Shown piece by piece: positions 1 through 50,587 of a stretch of DNA of 64,000 nt. The position numbers were made by a program, and so were the translations under genes. How positions within the stretch are numbered: the first letter of the stretch is position 1; each line of letters starts with the position of its first letter. The DNA comes from Terriglobales bacterium (GTDB taxonomy: Bacteria; Acidobacteriota; Terriglobia; Terriglobales; Acidobacteriaceae), in contig DASPST010000104.1 of assembly GCA_035623795.1 (NCBI GenBank), forward strand, positions 5,366 through 69,365, given 5' to 3'. The notes under the pieces were generated by a model. It did no database searches. It saw only the letters and a program-made list of their open reading frames with translations, and was not told the DNA's origin.

Positions 1-177
1 GGCTGTCAGCGGATCTTCTCGTGTGTTCGGCGGCTCCTACGCAGTCCTATAGGCCGGGTCGGGCGATTCTCTTCAGCTCTCTCCAGGGCGCTGTTTCTGA
101 AGGAGTTGGCGCACCACACGGGGCTGGATGTGGCGCGGGTTACCAGTTACCGGCGTAATATGCCGGAGGGGCTTTGA
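1..177 (+). CDS. possible 3' end of a CDS truncated by the window edge (unknown product)
   Basis: Forward frame 1 is open from base 1 to TGA at 175-177. It has the strongest third-position G+C bias of the forward frames. The tail ...LKELAHHTGLDVARVTSYRRNMPEGL looks HTH-like, but I recognise no family. Confidence 0.25.
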   Translation, partial: GCQRIFSCVRRLLRSPIGRVGRFSSALSRALFLKELAHHTGLDVARVTSYRRNMPEGL

Positions 178-179
178 TG

Positions 180-208
180 TTGACCTGCCCATTCACCAAA
201 CTTACATT
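180..208 (+). promoter_or_regulatory. candidate sigma70-type promoter of the 226-1668 module
   Basis: TTGACC (180-185), 17 nt, TACATT (203-208). The paralogous module has the same architecture upstream: TTGACT-17-TACAGT at 49988-50016 on the minus strand. Confidence 0.4.
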
Positions 209-225
209 CGCCTGCAGGGGGTTGT

Positions 226-498
226 ATGAAGGACATCCATGAGGTTTTGCGCCGAAAGCAGGCGAAATACGCACAACTAGCCAAGCAGATCGAAGCTCTG
301 CAGCAGGCGGCGGAGAAGTTGCGCGAAGTTGCTCCCCTGCTGGCTGAGAATGAAGAGGACGATAACGTCGTTCTGGCGGAGATGGACGACGAATTGACTC
401 AATCCAACGTGATGGCCGCAAAAGCGTCCAGTTCCCAGCAAGGTGGGAGCGGTTCGTCGGCTAAGCCGGCCCGGGGAGTTGCTCCTCGTTGGCCCTAA
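226..498 (+). CDS. small coiled-coil protein with acidic then Ser/Gly-rich tail (hypothetical; small-partner family, copy 1)
   Basis: ATG start preceded by GGGGG. The N-terminus MKDIHEVLRRKQAKYAQLAKQIEALQQAAEKLREVAPLLAENEEDD is heptad-like. A close paralog lies at 49805-49969 (minus). The ORF ends 33 nt before the REC-PilZ gene. Confidence 0.6.
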   Translation: MKDIHEVLRRKQAKYAQLAKQIEALQQAAEKLREVAPLLAENEEDDNVVLAEMDDELTQSNVMAAKASSSQQGGSGSSAKPARGVAPRWP

Positions 499-531
499 TC
501 CGTGGAACGACGTGGCAGATGTGAGCGTGGT

Positions 532-1668
532 ATGACCCTTCAGGCTTTGCTGGTTACCAAAGACGATAGCGCTGCCGATGTCCTCAGCCGAGTGCTGGCC
601 AATCTGGGCGTGGCGGTCGAGCGTTTCAGCGATTCCAACGTCGCAGAGAATCGCCTGCGCGAGCATCGTTTTGACGCACTGGTGGTCGATTTCGACGAGC
701 CGGAGACGGCCAGCCAACTGTTGCAGGTTGGGCAGCCTTCGGGGTCCGGCGCCATCATGGTGACCGTCGCCCTGGTCAACCAGGAGTGCACGGTGCGACA
801 AGTGCTGAAGGCCGGAGCAAGATTTATTCTCTTCAAGCCCGTCAGCCCTGATCATGCGGCGGCTGGCCTGAGCGCGGCCACCGCCTTGTTGAAGCGCGAA
901 CGGCGATCCTCGTTTCGCGTAGCTGTCCAAGCCCCGATTCAGTTAAGCCTGCCGGGCGGGGATCCCATGGAAGGAATCATGCTCGATTTGAGCCAGACGG
1001 GCATGGACGTGCTCGCAGCACAGCCGCTGCATCCGGCGGCCCTCGTCGGACTGCGTTTTACCCTTCCGGACGGAAGCCTCGAAATTGAGACCCGCGGGGA
1101 AGTTGCGTGGGCGAATCCGAATGGCCAGTCGGGTGTGCGCTTTCTGGATATCCCTGCCGATGTGCTGGAGAAGCTGCAAGCCTGGCTCCTGGCCAATGCT
1201 CCGGAAGTTCCCTCCGAGGACACGGACTTCGTTTCTCATTGCAAGCTCACCGACCTCAGCCTGGGTGGGTGCTACGTCGAAACCGACTCTCCCTTTCCCG
1301 AGCAGGCGCTGGTGGATCTCTGCCTGAAAGCGGAAGACATGGAGATCCACGCCGATGGCGTCGTGCGCATCATGCATCCCGGCTCCGGCATGGGCCTTGA
1401 GTTTCCTTCTCGTACTGAAGAACAGCGCGAAACCGTCACCAAGTTCATTGAGTTCCTCGCCAGCCGGCCTGGAACTACCCCTGAGCTCCTGATTGCTCCG
1501 CGTTCCATGACCGCTGATGAAAGCCAGTTCCAGTCGGCTGGCAGCGCCGAAGACACACTCGACGATCCGCTGCTGGAATTGCTCCGTAATGGCCCAGCGC
1601 TCTCGGAAGAGGAGTTTCTCGTGGAGCTGCGCCGCCAGCGCCATTCCGAGTCCATTGCCTCCAACTGA
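532..1668 (+). CDS. response-regulator receiver (REC) plus tandem PilZ domain protein
   Basis: CheY-like N-terminus (LLVTKDD, ALVVDFDE, ILFKPV). PilZ-1 has the RSSFR and DLSQTG motifs. PilZ-2 has DLSLGG but no RxxxR. I chose ATG 532 over the GTG at 502 used in the ORF track. Paralog of 48603-49763. Confidence 0.8.
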   Translation: MTLQALLVTKDDSAADVLSRVLANLGVAVERFSDSNVAENRLREHRFDALVVDFDEPETASQLLQVGQPSGSGAIMVTVALVNQECTVRQVLKAGARFILFKPVSPDHAAAGLSAATALLKRERRSSFRVAVQAPIQLSLPGGDPMEGIMLDLSQTGMDVLAAQPLHPAALVGLRFTLPDGSLEIETRGEVAWANPNGQSGVRFLDIPADVLEKLQAWLLANAPEVPSEDTDFVSHCKLTDLSLGGCYVETDSPFPEQALVDLCLKAEDMEIHADGVVRIMHPGSGMGLEFPSRTEEQRETVTKFIEFLASRPGTTPELLIAPRSMTADESQFQSAGSAEDTLDDPLLELLRNGPALSEEEFLVELRRQRHSESIASN

Positions 1669-2039: not shown

Positions 2040-2921
2040 ATGCCAACCGCGAAGACAAGTACCCGCCTTACCTTTGATAACATTCTCTTCCCCACTGATT
2101 TCACTGGGGCATCGGACGCCGCTCTGCCCTACGTTTTGGCTGTCGCCCGCTGGTACGGAGCCAAAGTCTTCATAACCCACGCGGTCGCCCCGCCCACCCC
2201 GCTCAGCATTCCACTGGAGCCCATTCCCCTCGAGATGGATGCGCTCTGGCAAGAAGCCAGGAGACGAGCAGATCAGTTCCTGCAGTCACATTGCCTACAG
2301 GACACAAAGAAGGAGGTCATACTCGAACAGGGCGCTTTGTGGAGCGTCCTTTCTGATGTGATCCGCAAACACTCCGTCGATCTTATTGTGTTAGGAACGC
2401 ATGGACGCCATGGCTTGAAGAAACTGGTCCTTGGTTCTTCGGCTGAACAAATTTTCCGTCAGGCTCCCTGTCCTGTCCTGACGATTGGCCCGAAGGTCAG
2501 CGCGAACTCCGTCGTCGATCGCTTGAGAACCATTCTGTTCGCCACCGATTTCTCCTCCGGGTCGCTGCACGCACTGCCTTATGCTCTGTCGCTAGCCGAG
2601 GAGAATGAGGCCGCGATTACGCTTCTGCACTCGATCCCACTGGTGCCCCTGCACCATCAGGAGACGGTGAGGGGAAGTGCAATCCGGCGGCTGCAGTCCC
2701 TGCTCCCGTCCGATGCAACCGACTGGTGCCGTCCGAAATCGGTGGTCCGCTTCGAATTTCCGGTAGAAGCAATTCTCCGTCAGGCTGAGGAGGAGCAGGC
2801 GGACCTGATCGTGATGGGCGTCCATCGGCAGACGCCGCACGCCTCGGCGCACCTGCCCTGGGCCATCGCGTACGAAGTTGTGTGTCGCGGATCTTGCCCG
2901 GTGCTGACCGTGCGCGGCTGA
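2040..2921 (+). CDS. universal stress protein, tandem UspA domains
   Basis: Two Usp-like halves: ILFPTDFTGASDAALPYV...IVLGTHGRHGLKKLVLGSSAEQIFRQAPCPVLT and ILFATDFSSGS...IVMGVH...CPVLTV. Confidence 0.85.
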   Translation: MPTAKTSTRLTFDNILFPTDFTGASDAALPYVLAVARWYGAKVFITHAVAPPTPLSIPLEPIPLEMDALWQEARRRADQFLQSHCLQDTKKEVILEQGALWSVLSDVIRKHSVDLIVLGTHGRHGLKKLVLGSSAEQIFRQAPCPVLTIGPKVSANSVVDRLRTILFATDFSSGSLHALPYALSLAEENEAAITLLHSIPLVPLHHQETVRGSAIRRLQSLLPSDATDWCRPKSVVRFEFPVEAILRQAEEEQADLIVMGVHRQTPHASAHLPWAIAYEVVCRGSCPVLTVRG

Positions 2922-3121: not shown

Positions 3122-4744
3122 TTGTCTCTATTGCTTACGCCGGGCCTTGCCGTGATGGCGGCATCTTTCGCCGTGGTCGTGTCCTTTTCCTTCCTAGGCA
3201 ATCCGTCAGGCCATGACTTCGAGTTCCACATGTATTCGTGGATGGAAGTCCTGAACCAGTGGAAACAAGGTGTCCTTTACCCACGATGGGCCGCGTTATC
3301 CCACTGGGCCTACGGCGAGGCTCGCTTCCTTTTCTACCCGCCTGTTTCGTGGAGCCTGGGCGGAATGCTGGGAGCTGTGCTCCCCTGGAAAGCCGTGCCG
3401 GGCGCGTTCATCTGGCTGGCACTGACCGCCGCTGGCTGCTCCATGTTTACGTTATCCCGCCGCTGGCTCAGTCGCAGCGATGCGGTTGTGGCCTCGGTTG
3501 TTTACGCCGCTAACCCCTACCACATCGTGATTGTGTATTGGCGGAGTGCTCTCGCGGAGTTGCTGGCAAGCTGCCTCCTCCCGTTGTTGCTCCTGCTGAT
3601 TTTGAAGTCCGTGGACGAGGGAAATCGGATGGTGTTTCCCCTGGGCCTGGTCGTGGCTGTCGCCTGGCTGACCAACGTGCCGTCAGCGGTCATGGTGAAC
3701 TACTCCTTGGCGTTACTCGTCGTTGTCGTCGCGGTTGCGCACCGCGCCCCACGCGTGCTCTGGTACGGCGCGCTCGCGGTTGTGCTCGGGGCTGCGCTGG
3801 CAGCGTTTTACTTGGTGCCAGCGGCCTACGAGGAGAAGTGGATCAACGTGGACCAGGTTTTCTCTCCTGGGGTACGACCGGAAGACAATTTTCTGTTCAC
3901 GACCATCCCCGACCCCGACCACAACAATTTCAATCGTATCGTTTCCACCATCGCTGTCGCCGAGATGATTGTACTGGCGGGCGCCCTTGCTCTTTCACGC
4001 CGATTGCGTAGAGATCACAAGGCCGCATGGTGGAGCCTGGCCCTCTGGGGAATCGCGGCCGGCGGACTGATGTTCCCCATCACCTTGCTTTTCTGGCACT
4101 ATCTGCCCAAGCTGCGCTACTTGCAGTTTCCCTGGCGTTGGCTGCTTTGCCTCAACGTGCCACTCGCGATTCTGCTCGTGATGGCATGGCGCCGCTGGGT
4201 CCCACGCGTAGTCTTGTATGTTTTACTGCTTGGGGTGATCGCAGTCGTTTGGCACCGAGTGCAGGAGCCGTGGTGGGACAATGCCGCCGACGTAAAAGAA
4301 ATGCAGGATGCCATCGCTGACGCGACCGGATACGAGGGCACCGATGAGTATGTCCCAGCGGGGGTTGATCCCCTTGATTTGAATAAGAACGCTCCACTGG
4401 TGGCCGCGGAACCGGGGACGAACCTTCAGATCAGGTCGTGGAAACCTGAATCCCGGAGCTTCGTTGCCGAGGTGACGAGGCCGGAAGAACTGCGTTTACG
4501 CCTCTTCAACTATCCGGCCTGGCGAGTTGAAGTAAACCATAGGCAGGTTCACGCTGAGACTACTGCCATCACAGGCGAGATGCTGATTCCAGTGGAAGTC
4601 GGCCGCAATGAGGTCATGGTCAGTTTCGAGCGCACGTGGGATCGCTCCCTAGGTGGGATTGTGTCGTCCGTCTCTGCCCTAGGCATGGTGCTGTGGCGCA
4701 TTATGCAATGGCGGGAGCGTGCTTTGACCAAAACGACGTCCTGA
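3122..4744 (+). CDS. polytopic membrane protein, PTPS-related / glycosyltransferase-like family
   Basis: Many TM helices. The N-terminal GHDFEFHMYSWMEVLNQWKQGVLYPRW motif resembles the membrane family annotated as 6-pyruvoyl-tetrahydropterin synthase-related. The start is uncertain: TTG 3122 or ATG 3152. Confidence 0.6.
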   Translation: MSLLLTPGLAVMAASFAVVVSFSFLGNPSGHDFEFHMYSWMEVLNQWKQGVLYPRWAALSHWAYGEARFLFYPPVSWSLGGMLGAVLPWKAVPGAFIWLALTAAGCSMFTLSRRWLSRSDAVVASVVYAANPYHIVIVYWRSALAELLASCLLPLLLLLILKSVDEGNRMVFPLGLVVAVAWLTNVPSAVMVNYSLALLVVVVAVAHRAPRVLWYGALAVVLGAALAAFYLVPAAYEEKWINVDQVFSPGVRPEDNFLFTTIPDPDHNNFNRIVSTIAVAEMIVLAGALALSRRLRRDHKAAWWSLALWGIAAGGLMFPITLLFWHYLPKLRYLQFPWRWLLCLNVPLAILLVMAWRRWVPRVVLYVLLLGVIAVVWHRVQEPWWDNAADVKEMQDAIADATGYEGTDEYVPAGVDPLDLNKNAPLVAAEPGTNLQIRSWKPESRSFVAEVTRPEELRLRLFNYPAWRVEVNHRQVHAETTAITGEMLIPVEVGRNEVMVSFERTWDRSLGGIVSSVSALGMVLWRIMQWRERALTKTTS

Positions 4745-33923: not shown

Positions 33924-34013
33924 GGAGAGGTGCGTGAGTGGTTGAAACGATCCGCCTCGAAAGCGGACATACCTTAACGGGTATCGGGGGTTCGAATCCC
34001 TCCCTCTCCGCCA
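33924..34013 (+). tRNA. tRNA-Ser(CGA): tRNA-Ser (anticodon CGA)
   Basis: Hand-folded cloverleaf. Acceptor GGAGAGG/CCTCTCC, anticodon stem TCCGC/GCGGA with loop CTCGAAA, long variable arm, T-loop TTCGAAT, encoded CCA. Confidence 0.9.
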
Positions 34014-48602: not shown

Positions 48603-49763
48603 TTAGAAAGGGAGGATGTTCTCCTCCGCAGCATCCATCGGGTGGGACATGCGTTGCTTGCGCAGTTCGCCGAGGAAGAGTTCGGCGGGCAAGGAGGCCT
48701 TGTCGTAGAACAATTCGAGGAGCGGATCATCGATTTCGTGGCCGTCGGGCGCCGCCTTTGAGGGCACATCCGCTTCCGTCTCCAGCCCCTCCGGCTCAAC
48801 CATGAGTTCGGGGATGGCGCCGTCTCCATCGCGGAGAGCGTGAATGAATTTCTCCACCTGATCACGCTGCTCGTCAGTCGTTTGCCGGAACTCGACGCCC
48901 ATTCCAACTTCAGGGTGCATGATGCGCACTACCCCTTCGACGCGAAGTTCGAGCCCGGCGGCGCGCATGCAAATCAGAATCCGGGTGCGCGCCGGAAAGG
49001 GAGAAGACACCTCCAAATAGCATCCCCCCAGACTGAGGTCGGTCAGCTTGCAGCGCACGGGTGGGTCATCCTTCTCATTTTCAGGAGACTGGCTGTTCAA
49101 CCACTGCCGCAGCTGATACGAGATCTCGACCGGAGGACCCACAAAACGGATCCCGATCTGCCCTCCCGGGTTCTGCCAGGCGGCCTCGCCGGCCAGCTCG
49201 AGTTCTCGGGTTGAGCCCGGCAGAGCAAACTTCACTTGCCAGGGGCCGCGGTGCTTCGCGCCATGACGCTTGGGATGTTGCACCGCGATGCCACCCTCGC
49301 TCAAGTCGTTGCTGACCACCTTCTCTTTGAGACCGCTGCTCTGGTTGATCAGGTGAACCGGGACCTGAACTGGAACCCGGGTGTTGCGCCGGCGTTCGCG
49401 CTTCATGAGGGCACGAGCCGCCCGGAAGGCAGCCTTCGCCCGTTCCGGGGAGACCGGTTTGTAGAGGACAAAGTGGGCCCCCATGTCGAAAGCAGAACGC
49501 AAACCCGTGTGCCCGTCCATGATGGCTACGGCAATAGCGCGTTTGTTGCATGGAGCGGTGCGAGCGGTCTTGAGCGCCGTGCTTGCGGTTTTCAGGTCGG
49601 TGCAATCGACGATGACGGCTTCAAAACGCAGCCGGGTAAGCTTGCGGATTGCGCTTTCGGGTTCGCTGCAGTGGTCGATGCCGATCTCCAACTCGCTGAG
49701 GACACGCCGCAAAAGGCGGACAATCTTCTCATCGGAGCACAGCACGAGTGACTTCAGACTCAT
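48603..49763 (-). CDS. response-regulator receiver (REC) plus tandem PilZ domain protein (paralog of 532-1668)
   Basis: VLCSDE, AVIVDCTD and VLYKPV mark the REC domain. RRRNTR ... DLSEGG mark PilZ-1, and KLTDLSLGGCYLE marks PilZ-2. It shares the C-terminal tail IDDPLLELF....LP.E.FLGELRKQR. Confidence 0.8.
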   Translation of the reverse strand: MSLKSLVLCSDEKIVRLLRRVLSELEIGIDHCSEPESAIRKLTRLRFEAVIVDCTDLKTASTALKTARTAPCNKRAIAVAIMDGHTGLRSAFDMGAHFVLYKPVSPERAKAAFRAARALMKRERRRNTRVPVQVPVHLINQSSGLKEKVVSNDLSEGGIAVQHPKRHGAKHRGPWQVKFALPGSTRELELAGEAAWQNPGGQIGIRFVGPPVEISYQLRQWLNSQSPENEKDDPPVRCKLTDLSLGGCYLEVSSPFPARTRILICMRAAGLELRVEGVVRIMHPEVGMGVEFRQTTDEQRDQVEKFIHALRDGDGAIPELMVEPEGLETEADVPSKAAPDGHEIDDPLLELFYDKASLPAELFLGELRKQRMSHPMDAAEENILPF

Positions 49764-49804: not shown

Positions 49805-49969
49805 TCAGCCCCGGCCAGGCGGAATGTCTTTCTCTTCTTCCTCATCCGCATCGAGCAGGTGGGCGACGTTGCGCAACTGCTCGGCAGCTGTCTGGAGGGC
49901 TTCGATCTGCTTTCCCAACTCGGCCTGCTGGGCTTGTTTCCTACGCAACACCTCGTGAATATCTCTCAA
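49805..49969 (-). CDS. small coiled-coil protein with acidic tail (small-partner family, copy 2; 54 aa, TTG start)
   Basis: GGGAGG lies 5 nt before the TTG. Product: (M)RDIHEVLRRKQAQQAELGKQIEALQTAAEQLRNVAHLLDADEEEEKDIPPGRG. By hand alignment, 32 of the first 47 residues are identical to 226-498. It is below the ORF-track cutoff. Confidence 0.55.
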   Translation of the reverse strand: MRDIHEVLRRKQAQQAELGKQIEALQTAAEQLRNVAHLLDADEEEEKDIPPGRG

Positions 49970-49987
49970 GAGCGCCTCCCGAAGGCC

Positions 49988-50016: not shown

Positions 50017-50174
50017 TGAAGGTCCCTTGCCCTCAGGTTACGGCCGTAATAGGCTGAAGGCCAGGAGTTCGTGAAGGCGCCGTCGAGTTCACAATGACGG
50101 TGATGTATTTCGTCTAACCTATTGCTGGGTAATGACTTAGTTTTTTGACGCCGGCGTTTGAGGTAAGAATCGCA

Positions 50175-50359: not shown

Positions 50360-50587
50360 ATGGCAAAGCGACGCGGCAACCCGAATTGGGGTAAGCCGGA
50401 GCCCATCGGGCCGATTACCCCCACCGTCACCGAGTTCGAACAGGTGGTGCGTGAATACAAACTCTCCCCCGACCAATATTTGCGGTCGACGCGTTTGCGG
50501 GAGTGGGCACGGCGAAACAAGAACTCGAAGTACATCCCCGAACCGCTGTTGGAAGCCTGGGGCTTCGAGATCGAGTCCACTCTGTAA
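50360..50587 (+). CDS. small basic hypothetical protein (75 aa)
   Basis: MAKRRGNPNWGKPEPIGP... It has its own promoter-like boxes and is followed by a clean terminator. No family recognised. Confidence 0.55.
   Translation: MAKRRGNPNWGKPEPIGPITPTVTEFEQVVREYKLSPDQYLRSTRLREWARRNKNSKYIPEPLLEAWGFEIESTL

Follow-up and report, generated by a model that had tools for sequence, protein, structure and literature searches.

Two paralogous gene pairs in a 64-kb stretch of DNA from a Terriglobales bacterium (hereafter the window, meaning the whole of the stretch analyzed) each encode a small protein with a predicted zipper helix and, directly downstream, a large protein that joins a receiver-like domain to two PilZ domains. 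On balance, we judge it probable that each pair constitutes a co-transcribed effector of the biofilm signal cyclic diguanosine monophosphate (c-di-GMP), in which the large protein acts together with an obligate small partner. Copy 1 lies on the plus strand and comprises a small open reading frame (ORF) of 90 residues with an ATG start (226-498) and a large ORF of 378 residues, also starting with ATG (532-1668). Copy 2 lies on the minus strand, with a small ORF of 54 residues and a TTG start (49805-49969) and a large ORF of 386 residues (48603-49763) that has the same four-part architecture as its paralog, namely a receiver-like domain, a first PilZ domain (PilZ1), a degenerate second PilZ domain (PilZ2) and a C-terminal helical hairpin. 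The original prediction had placed the two pairs at these positions, which the ORF lists and the sequence bear out, and had proposed a conserved small partner coupled to a receiver (REC)-PilZ protein and kept as a unit through duplication. The strict linkage (80/80 and 78/78 loci) and the matched subfamilies described below support this proposal.

The boundaries of the genes are well defined. In copy 1, 33 nucleotides (nt) separate the end of the small ORF from the ATG at position 532. A mechanical ORF list begins the large ORF at GTG 502 (388 residues); we prefer 532 because most homologs have 378 residues, and the predicted succession of a 90-residue ORF, 33 nt and a 378-residue protein is thereby upheld. 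The corresponding spacing in copy 2 is 41 nt. A Shine-Dalgarno-like AGGGGG, read from the sequence, lies 4 nt 5' of the copy-1 small-gene ATG (216-221, plus strand), and an upstream alignment of orthologous loci revealed a nearly invariant AGGGGGTTGTA(A)TG at the start of the small gene. In copy 2, a ribosome-site-like GGGAGG (49975-49980, minus strand) lies 5 nt 5' of the small-gene TTG. BLASTP found the two small proteins to be identical at 32 of 49 positions (65%, E 9e-20), in agreement with a hand alignment that had counted 32 of 47. The large proteins are identical at 148 of 379 positions (39%, E 3e-86) and, as predicted, align end to end, with the DDPLLEL...FL.ELR.QR tail included. No third copy was found in the window by tblastn. 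In copy 1 the two ORFs share a reading frame, with one TAA and ten sense codons between them (226-1668); this is a coincidence, since the relative frame differs between species.

Central to our reading is the linkage between the small and large genes. A scan of one genome per species, made with an alignment of the large protein, recovered 544 relatives, and counts for the copy-1 locus refer to the best 80 of these 544. The 80 loci encode large proteins that are 53-71% identical and derive from Terriglobales, Acidobacteriaceae and Candidatus Sulfotelmatobacter metagenome-assembled genomes. For the short small protein, a metagenome scan returned 80 loci, of which 78 were usable because they extend more than about 135 nt past the small gene. 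A homolog of the small protein is encoded directly upstream of the large gene, on the same strand, in 80/80 species-level loci, and a copy-2-type large gene follows directly downstream of the short small gene in 78/78 usable metagenome loci. Hence, the expectation that small-protein hits would always sit directly upstream of a REC-PilZ gene holds in both sets. The pair is likewise present in six further lineages or places. The gap between the genes has medians of 32 and 37 nt in the two families, falls at about 25-46 nt in most loci, and was found to hold no terminator. From locus to locus, the large gene may be in frame 0, 1 or 2 relative to the small one, from which it follows that the two genes encode separate proteins and not a read-through product.

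Both genes are under purifying selection. Across 628 ortholog pairs, the ratio of nonsynonymous to synonymous substitution rates (dN/dS, Nei-Gojobori) is 0.08 for the long small gene and 0.12 for its large gene; across 192 pairs, it is 0.065 for the short small gene and 0.15 for the large gene of that type. The small reading frame, predicted to be conserved, is thus intact in both subfamilies, with ratios (0.065-0.08) below those of the large genes (0.12-0.15). Indeed, residues 1-41 of the small protein remain near-invariant while the large proteins drop to 53% identity. Between the two small genes of the window, the proportion of synonymous differences is 0.905, which amounts to saturation, against a proportion of nonsynonymous differences of 0.17 over the first 47 codons. 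Long small genes always accompany copy-1-type large genes, and short small genes accompany copy-2-type large genes. In distant lineages, where the small protein is 41-51% identical, the genes are still paired, and the large protein is of copy-1 type (44-50% versus 37-40% identity). We conclude that the duplication is old, because distant lineages are already of copy-1 type and because synonymous sites are saturated while each small subfamily keeps its own large subfamily.

An exhaustive profile search for fusions yielded three longer proteins (P0366, P0367 and P0370). Two of these, P0366 and P0370, were rejected as small-large fusions, being frameshift read-through artefacts. The third, P0367 (252 residues, from metagenome read SRR5204863_92733), carries residues 1-84 of the small protein in frame with PilZ1-PilZ2, the receiver being missing. 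It may represent a natural fusion, a deletion or an assembly artefact, and lends the pairing weak evidence.

The small ORFs are genuine genes. The 90-residue protein has 3589 homolog clusters in a large protein collection, the best 120 of which are 85-103 residues long with full-length alignments, and an identical protein is on deposit as "hypothetical protein VEI01_21800 [Terriglobales bacterium]". Querying with the 54-residue protein gave 227 clusters, the best-scoring among the matches listed being 51-54 residues long. When 1.84 billion representatives were searched exhaustively with a profile, only 131 reached E ≤0.001, nearly all of them short. Every source-named member of the family belongs to the Terriglobales or Terriglobia, and the family thus appears to be narrow and apparently specific to the Terriglobia (Acidobacteriota). 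It had been suggested that the small partner is short enough to be missed by annotation; this is not the case, since both ORFs have already been called as hypothetical proteins on public contigs in NCBI, JGI, ENA and Logan assemblies.

Two subfamilies can be told apart by their anatomy. In the long type (about 88 residues), residues 1-41 are almost invariant across 81 species and read MKDIHEVLRxKQxxYAQLxKQIExLQQAAEKLREVAPLLAE. Beyond this helical segment the chain continues through an acidic patch into a disordered, Ala/Ser-rich linker, which varies in length, and ends in R-x4-R-W-P, with PRWP at the C-terminus of 81/81 sequences. The short type (about 53 residues), to which the copy-2 protein belongs with its zipper helix and acidic end, stops after the acidic patch and lacks the linker and PRWP tail. 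Long-type genes always start with ATG; the short-type starts at the 65 loci analyzed are GTG (58), ATG (4) and TTG (3), the last being the codon of the window copy (49967-49969). Seven residues are invariant across the whole family, distant and short members included: I4, K11, L18, L25, L32, L38 and L39. By our own reading of the sequence, the heptad d positions would be I4, K11, L18, L25, L32 and L39, and the a positions L8, Y15, I22, A29 and A36. AlphaFold predicts a helix over approximately residues 3-40 of the 90-residue protein (predicted local distance difference test score, pLDDT, 80-92), with low confidence beyond. No relatives of the small protein were found in Pfam, NCBIfam, PADLOC or PDB sequences, where the matches amounted to sub-threshold coiled-coil noise. 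Separately, we considered whether the small protein might lend an RxxxR motif to PilZ2 in trans and rejected the idea: a conserved RxxxR is found neither in R10-x3-K14 nor in the tail R-x4-R-W-P, which is missing altogether from the short subfamily.

It could be argued that there is no contact between the two proteins, the small one being either an independent coiled coil or an upstream ORF that tunes expression, so that adjacency would reflect shared transcription only. The weak starts of the short type (GTG 58 and TTG 3 of 65) would fit such a regulatory role, and contact between the proteins is itself something that we infer. Nevertheless, a dN/dS of 0.065-0.08, a near-invariant helix of 41 residues and an invariant PRWP are hard to square with a leader peptide. 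Moreover, the pairing has outlived an ancient duplication with its subfamilies matched, and is found in 158/158 usable loci while other neighbors vary; the gap of about 25-46 nt and the variable frames speak against translational coupling of the overlap type. We therefore regard this explanation as very improbable.

The large protein is, judging from its sequence, a PilZ-domain receptor with an atypical receiver, for which c-di-GMP binding is predicted. The AlphaFold model of the copy-1 protein (pLDDT 84, predicted template modeling score 0.70) resolves into a receiver (residues 1-125), PilZ1 (130-222), PilZ2 (235-311), a strand (318-325) and C-terminal helices (346-371). Pfam PilZ (PF07238) matches two stretches at E 5e-26, the value listed for PilZ1, and 1e-19; it scores 91.3 bits in copy 1 and 70.7 bits in copy 2 against a cut-off of 22.5. 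Copy 1 also exceeds the TIGR02266 cut-off of 68.7 with 72.5 bits, and copy 2, at 60.9, falls below it. In the model, a helix (209-222 and 296-311, respectively) comes after each of the two barrels (130-204 and 235-290). Foldseek matched the PilZ domains to Alg44, MapZ and BcsA, with target-normalized template modeling (TM) scores of 0.67-0.78 and root mean square deviations (rmsd) of 2.4-2.9 Å, and also to MotI, VCA0042 and the PilZ domain of YcgR. These matches were at the level of domains, and Foldseek found no full-length match to the large protein.

Residue conservation was counted over 146 large-protein homologs (81 copy-1 and 65 copy-2 sequences). PilZ1 (892-1197, plus strand; residues 121-222) carries RRSSFR and DLSQTG in copy 1, corresponding to R124-R125-x3-R129 and D152-x-S154-x2-G157. 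The three arginines are kept in 81/81 copy-1 and 64/65 copy-2 sequences, and the D152-x-S154-x2-G157 motif in 81/81 copy-1 sequences. It is this set of motifs from which c-di-GMP binding at PilZ1 is predicted. PilZ2 (1234-1464, plus strand; residues 235-311) contains the invariant CKLTDLSLGGCY, preceded by an acidic loop. DLSLGG occurs in 81/81 sequences of copy 1 and in about 58-65 of the 65 sequences of copy 2, the longer form being DLSLGGCY, and the arginine motif is absent from both paralog families. Hence, the original description of a PilZ1 with RxxxR and DxSxxG and of a PilZ2 that keeps DLSLGG and has no RxxxR agrees with the motif counts. The C-terminal two-helix hairpin (1561-1644, plus strand; residues 344-371), with the pattern DPLLELL...F..EL.[RK]QR, is modeled as helices 346-356 and 359-371 and is conserved in both paralog families. 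When columns that are both conserved and identical in the two families are considered, RERRR..R stands highest (67%), followed by the PilZ2 barrel (46%) and the C-terminal helices (36%), with the receiver (21%) and the PilZ1 barrel (14%) lowest.

The receiver-like domain occupies residues 1-120 of the copy-1 protein (532-891, plus strand) and keeps D11, D12, D53 and K102. A profile of the large-protein family matched solved receivers among PDB sequences at E 5e-5, and its alignments pair the domain with RpfC, CheY2 and CheY such that D53 corresponds to their acceptor aspartate. The AlphaFold model displays the (beta-alpha)5 fold of a receiver, with five strands alternating with helices over residues 3-125 (pLDDT mostly 80-96), and Foldseek gave TM scores of 0.7-0.76 to MtrA, PhoB and CheY4. 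The acidic pocket is retained, with D11 in 146/146, Asp or Glu at position 12 in 144/146 and D53 in 146/146 sequences. K102-P103 is present in 81/81 copy-1 sequences, and a Thr or Ser occurs two residues ahead of the CheY Thr87 position, at position 78, in copy 1 only. Pfam Response_reg (PF00072) scores 25.8 bits in copy 1 and 17.3 bits in copy 2, under the gathering score of 30.2. Thus, the prediction of a CheY-like receiver stands as far as the fold is concerned, by profile, AlphaFold, Foldseek and the Asp pocket alike; its description as a phospho-receiver is uncertain, owing to Ala at the Thr/Ser position and to Gln in place of Lys. Phosphorylation at D53 is possible, yet unproven given the atypical nature of the receiver.

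A receiver coupled with a coiled coil of about 86-90 residues invites comparison with RssB of E. coli and its antagonists IraP, IraD and IraM, in which a receiver-domain protein is under the control of small proteins, as could be proposed here. IraP is a small coiled-coil protein similar in size to the small partner. By analogy, the small protein could be an anti-adaptor or inhibitor acting on the receiver, possibly within controlled proteolysis, with PRWP serving as a docking peptide. RssB-IraD/IraM are among the Foldseek matches of the receiver, there is a weak NCBIfam match to RssB, and the C-terminal peptide, conserved and carried by a disordered linker, has the features typical of a docking motif. 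The RssB matches are, however, confined to the receiver (TM about 0.25-0.3, rmsd >19 Å), the neighborhood holds no protease or sigma-factor genes, and the short subfamily does without the tail. The receiver is also less conserved between the paralogs than PilZ2 (21% versus 46% shared columns). Furthermore, RssB has a PP2C-like domain instead of PilZ, the Ira genes lie outside the rssB operon, and neither protein of the pair is related to these in sequence. An anti-adaptor role is therefore improbable in our estimation.

Returning to the reading of the pair as a c-di-GMP effector with an obligate partner, we can sketch how it might operate. The large protein would serve as a sensor or scaffold, and its receiver-like domain might provide a second input, through phosphorylation at D53, or have a conformational or docking role only. 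PilZ2, having lost its Arg motif, could form a protein-binding surface together with the C-terminal hairpin. The zipper helix of the small protein may dock on this PilZ2/C-terminal core, may dimerize, or may do both. A likely site of contact comprises RERRR..R, PilZ2 and the C-terminal helices, because the conservation of these parts between the large paralogs parallels that of the N-terminal helix between the small ones. In the long subfamily, the acidic patch and flexible linker would offer PRWP to a further site, which may belong to a downstream target or to the large protein itself. The complex, and through it the output, would then change when the ligand binds and perhaps also upon phosphorylation.

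Several observations weigh against this reading. The Response_reg score under the Pfam threshold marks the receiver as atypical, and the Thr/Ser position (CheY Thr87) is Ala80 in 145/146 sequences. K102 is kept as Lys in 46/65 copy-2 sequences and replaced by Gln in 19/65 (29%), and 26/65 have Gly in place of Ser in the DxSxxG motif of PilZ1. No histidine kinase gene lies near the pair in the source genome. P0367 comes from one truncated metagenome read and is perhaps an artefact, and conserved neighbors such as a Ham1-like gene may reflect inherited gene order rather than common function. Contact between the small and large proteins, finally, is deduced from their linkage.

The two operons share a promoter layout. 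Sigma-70-like promoters found by a consensus scan precede both, as TTGACC-17-TACATT for operon 1 (180-208, plus strand) and TTGACT-17-TACAGT for operon 2 (50016-49988, minus strand). The TTGAC (-35) and TAnAnT (-10) boxes and the ribosome-binding site are conserved in both operon families in an alignment of 18 upstream regions; the boxes proposed earlier, TTGAC(C/T)-17-TACA(T/G)T, are therefore not only present but maintained across species. Upstream of each promoter we found an operator-like palindrome with the consensus [G/A]TTAC-N4-GTAA[C/T], which reads GTTACCGGCGTAAT in operon 1 (146-159, plus strand) and ATTACGGCCGTAAC on the minus strand in operon 2 (50037-50050). The -35 box follows 26-27 nt downstream of its center, which falls at about -62 relative to the inferred transcription start (about 214-216 in operon 1), a position that would resemble that of a class-I activator. 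With up to one mismatch allowed, the palindrome occurs in the window exactly twice, at the two promoters, where 0.41 occurrences are expected. It is found at the same position in 77/80 copy-1 and 57/60 copy-2 loci (134/140), and TTAC-N4-GTAA stands at the same place in distant lineages (loci L169 and L171-L174). Elsewhere in about 976 kb of flanking sequence there are 9 matches, at or below a chance estimate of about 20. Because they have the same promoter layout and the same TTAC-N4-GTAA operator-like site, the two paralogous operons are probably co-regulated.

This distribution raises the question of what binds the site, and it is tempting to look to the pair itself. MrkH of Klebsiella pneumoniae is a tandem PilZ-fold activator that has no classical DNA-binding domain and relies on basic residues in its C-terminal helix (PMC5055493); its binding site lies upstream of -35, and its gene shares a transcript with that of a second protein in the bicistronic mrkHI operon (PMC3828302, PMC5055493, PMC5344390). 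By this comparison the pair might be a MrkH-like, c-di-GMP-responsive transcription factor that acts on TTAC-N4-GTAA near -62 and autoregulates both operons. Apart from the palindrome itself, which is fixed in 134/140 promoters and in distant lineages and at or below chance elsewhere in the approximately 1 Mb of flanks and in the window, the proposal could draw on the conserved basic C-terminal helix of the large protein (EL.[RK]QR) and on R9, R10, K11 and K14 of the small protein, which lie just ahead of four Leu heptads and coincide with weak matches to bZIP_1 (PF00170). These bZIP_1 matches, however, reach 12.9-15.3 bits against a cut-off of 27.6, far under the threshold and outside the family, and the four basic residues are the only ones preceding the Leu heptads, a stretch much shorter than a bZIP basic region. 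With half-sites 4 bp apart, the palindrome would suit the dimer of a helix-turn-helix protein more than an uninterrupted zipper helix, and no DNA-binding domain was detected by Pfam or NCBIfam. Nor does the large protein resemble MrkH closely: the global Foldseek match is poor (TM 0.18-0.29), and RxxxR lies outside the linker between the PilZ domains, unlike in MrkH. The sample comprised about 1 Mb of DNA, and the site may serve a wider regulon under another factor. We consider this alternative unlikely. In its more specific form, the small and large proteins would be the two subunits of a Terriglobia-specific counterpart of MrkH, responsive to c-di-GMP and perhaps to phosphorylation, that auto- and cross-regulates both operons; this we hold to be distinctly unlikely. 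MrkI is a LuxR-type protein, and the small protein has no similarity to it. What the pair would share with MrkH/MrkI is a protein of two PilZ folds expressed from one transcript with another protein, and possibly action at a site upstream of -35; the placement of the motifs is different.

As an effector with a dedicated partner, the pair may be set beside other PilZ systems. Tandem PilZ proteins typically combine a canonical c-di-GMP binder with a degenerate barrel, and most of their clusters are uncharacterized (10.1101/814665; 10.1101/2020.02.11.943704). The large protein resembles such receptors (YcgR, MotI/DgrA, PlzA and Bll4394) in having two PilZ barrels in one chain, one canonical and one degenerate. 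In the YcgR-type xPilZ-PilZ arrangement, however, it is the N-terminal domain that is degenerate. The large protein has the opposite order, with the degenerate PilZ2 C-terminal to the canonical PilZ1, and a YcgR model matches it only at E 0.036. The large protein further differs from tandem PilZ receptors by its N-terminal receiver, its C-terminal hairpin and its dedicated small partner gene, and by the absence of a flagellar gene context.

Fusions of REC to PilZ have been known since the first description of PilZ and form the uncharacterized 'cluster 10' of a PilZ similarity network (10.1101/2020.02.11.943704; 10.1101/814665). Their likeness to the large protein lies in a receiver that is N-terminal to a c-di-GMP-binding PilZ domain. 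Cluster 10 proteins have 140-280 residues and a single PilZ domain, and the text consulted mentions no partner gene; the large protein, in contrast, has a second PilZ domain, a hairpin and the small gene. In Pseudomonas aeruginosa, HapZ (PA2799) and SagS bring together PilZ and receiver such that c-di-GMP modulates two-component signaling (10.1101/2020.02.11.943704). HapZ is, however, a single-domain PilZ protein that acts in trans by binding a kinase's receiver, whereas here receiver and PilZ belong to one chain and the extra component is a coiled coil. The PilZ fold without RxxxR is also known as a protein-protein module, as in the Xanthomonas PilZ-FimX-PilB system and in tetrameric XCC6012/FlgX (10.1101/814665; PMC11725899). 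Those non-binding adaptors are stand-alone, in contrast to PilZ2, which keeps its invariant DhSxxG-like DLSLGG beside a canonical PilZ domain in the same chain. None of the systems compared has a dedicated small coiled-coil partner. Since these systems and the libraries searched are without the small partner family, we file the module as a variant on PilZ receptors.

The claim that no function has been described for such a pairing agrees with our searches of Pfam, NCBIfam, PDB and the literature. Searches of the literature for REC-PilZ proteins and for PilZ proteins in Acidobacteria/Acidobacteriota yielded nothing, and we found no paper on c-di-GMP signaling in the Terriglobia. These organisms are among the most abundant soil bacteria, and the Acidobacteriota are a dominant soil phylum; the pair points to an unstudied signaling module in soil acidobacteria. 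Hundreds of species genomes carry the module (the species representatives yielded 544 relatives); it is strongly constrained and exists as two ancient paralogous pairs. It introduces a new family of small proteins whose parts follow a clear order, from zipper helix through acidic patch and linker to the PRWP end, together with a PilZ receptor in which the degenerate second barrel is the part conserved best, and its defined promoter and operator-like site provide a handle. Should binding between the partners prove true, the pair would represent a new route by which a PilZ receptor is coupled to its output through a dedicated small subunit.

The surroundings of copy 1 contain several recurrent genes. 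Downstream of the pair lies a gene for a polytopic membrane protein of 540 residues (3122-4744, plus strand), GT-C-like, with Pfam PTPS_related above and YfhO just below threshold. A PTPS_related/YfhO-like protein is encoded downstream of the copy-1 pair in 64-68 of the 80 species and in distant lineages also, often directly after the large gene or, as in the source genome, after a tandem universal-stress-protein (Usp) gene. The latter (2040-2921, plus strand; 293 residues, two Usp domains) lies between the large gene and the membrane protein and occupies that spot in only 14 of the 80 related species. A Ham1-like gene follows the membrane protein in 56/80 related loci. In 57/80 species, a secreted PEP-CTERM protein of about 209 residues (TIGR02595, 26.4 bits against 16) is encoded directly upstream on the same strand, about 260 nt from the small gene (loci L009-L088; for example L049, 2594-3502), and a stand-alone cyclic-nucleotide-binding protein of about 159 residues is encoded further upstream in 35/80; both genes are absent from the source-genome locus. 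Three distant Terriglobales lineages (L169, 1-4596; L171, 1-4643; L173, 1557-5572) carry, immediately upstream of the pair and in the same orientation, genes for a hybrid histidine kinase (REC-PAS-HATPase) and for REC-HDOD-HD and REC-HD-GYP proteins. We rejected this cluster as a general neighbor, absent as it is from the source genome and from the 80 closest species. Taken together, the neighbors hint at c-di-GMP and two-component signaling and at an output at the cell surface or in the biofilm matrix.

The neighbors of copy 2 are different genes. Among the 80 metagenome loci, a conserved ORF of 75 residues is divergent from the operon in 59 and a DUF4126 gene is present in 46. In the window, the 75-residue ORF lies at 50360-50587 on the plus strand and begins MAKRRGNPNWGKPEP; as a candidate regulator it gave no match to a family or structure in Pfam, NCBIfam or PDB. 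A search of the whole window with Rfam found no RNA element near either operon, the sole match being a tRNA at 33924-34010 on the plus strand.

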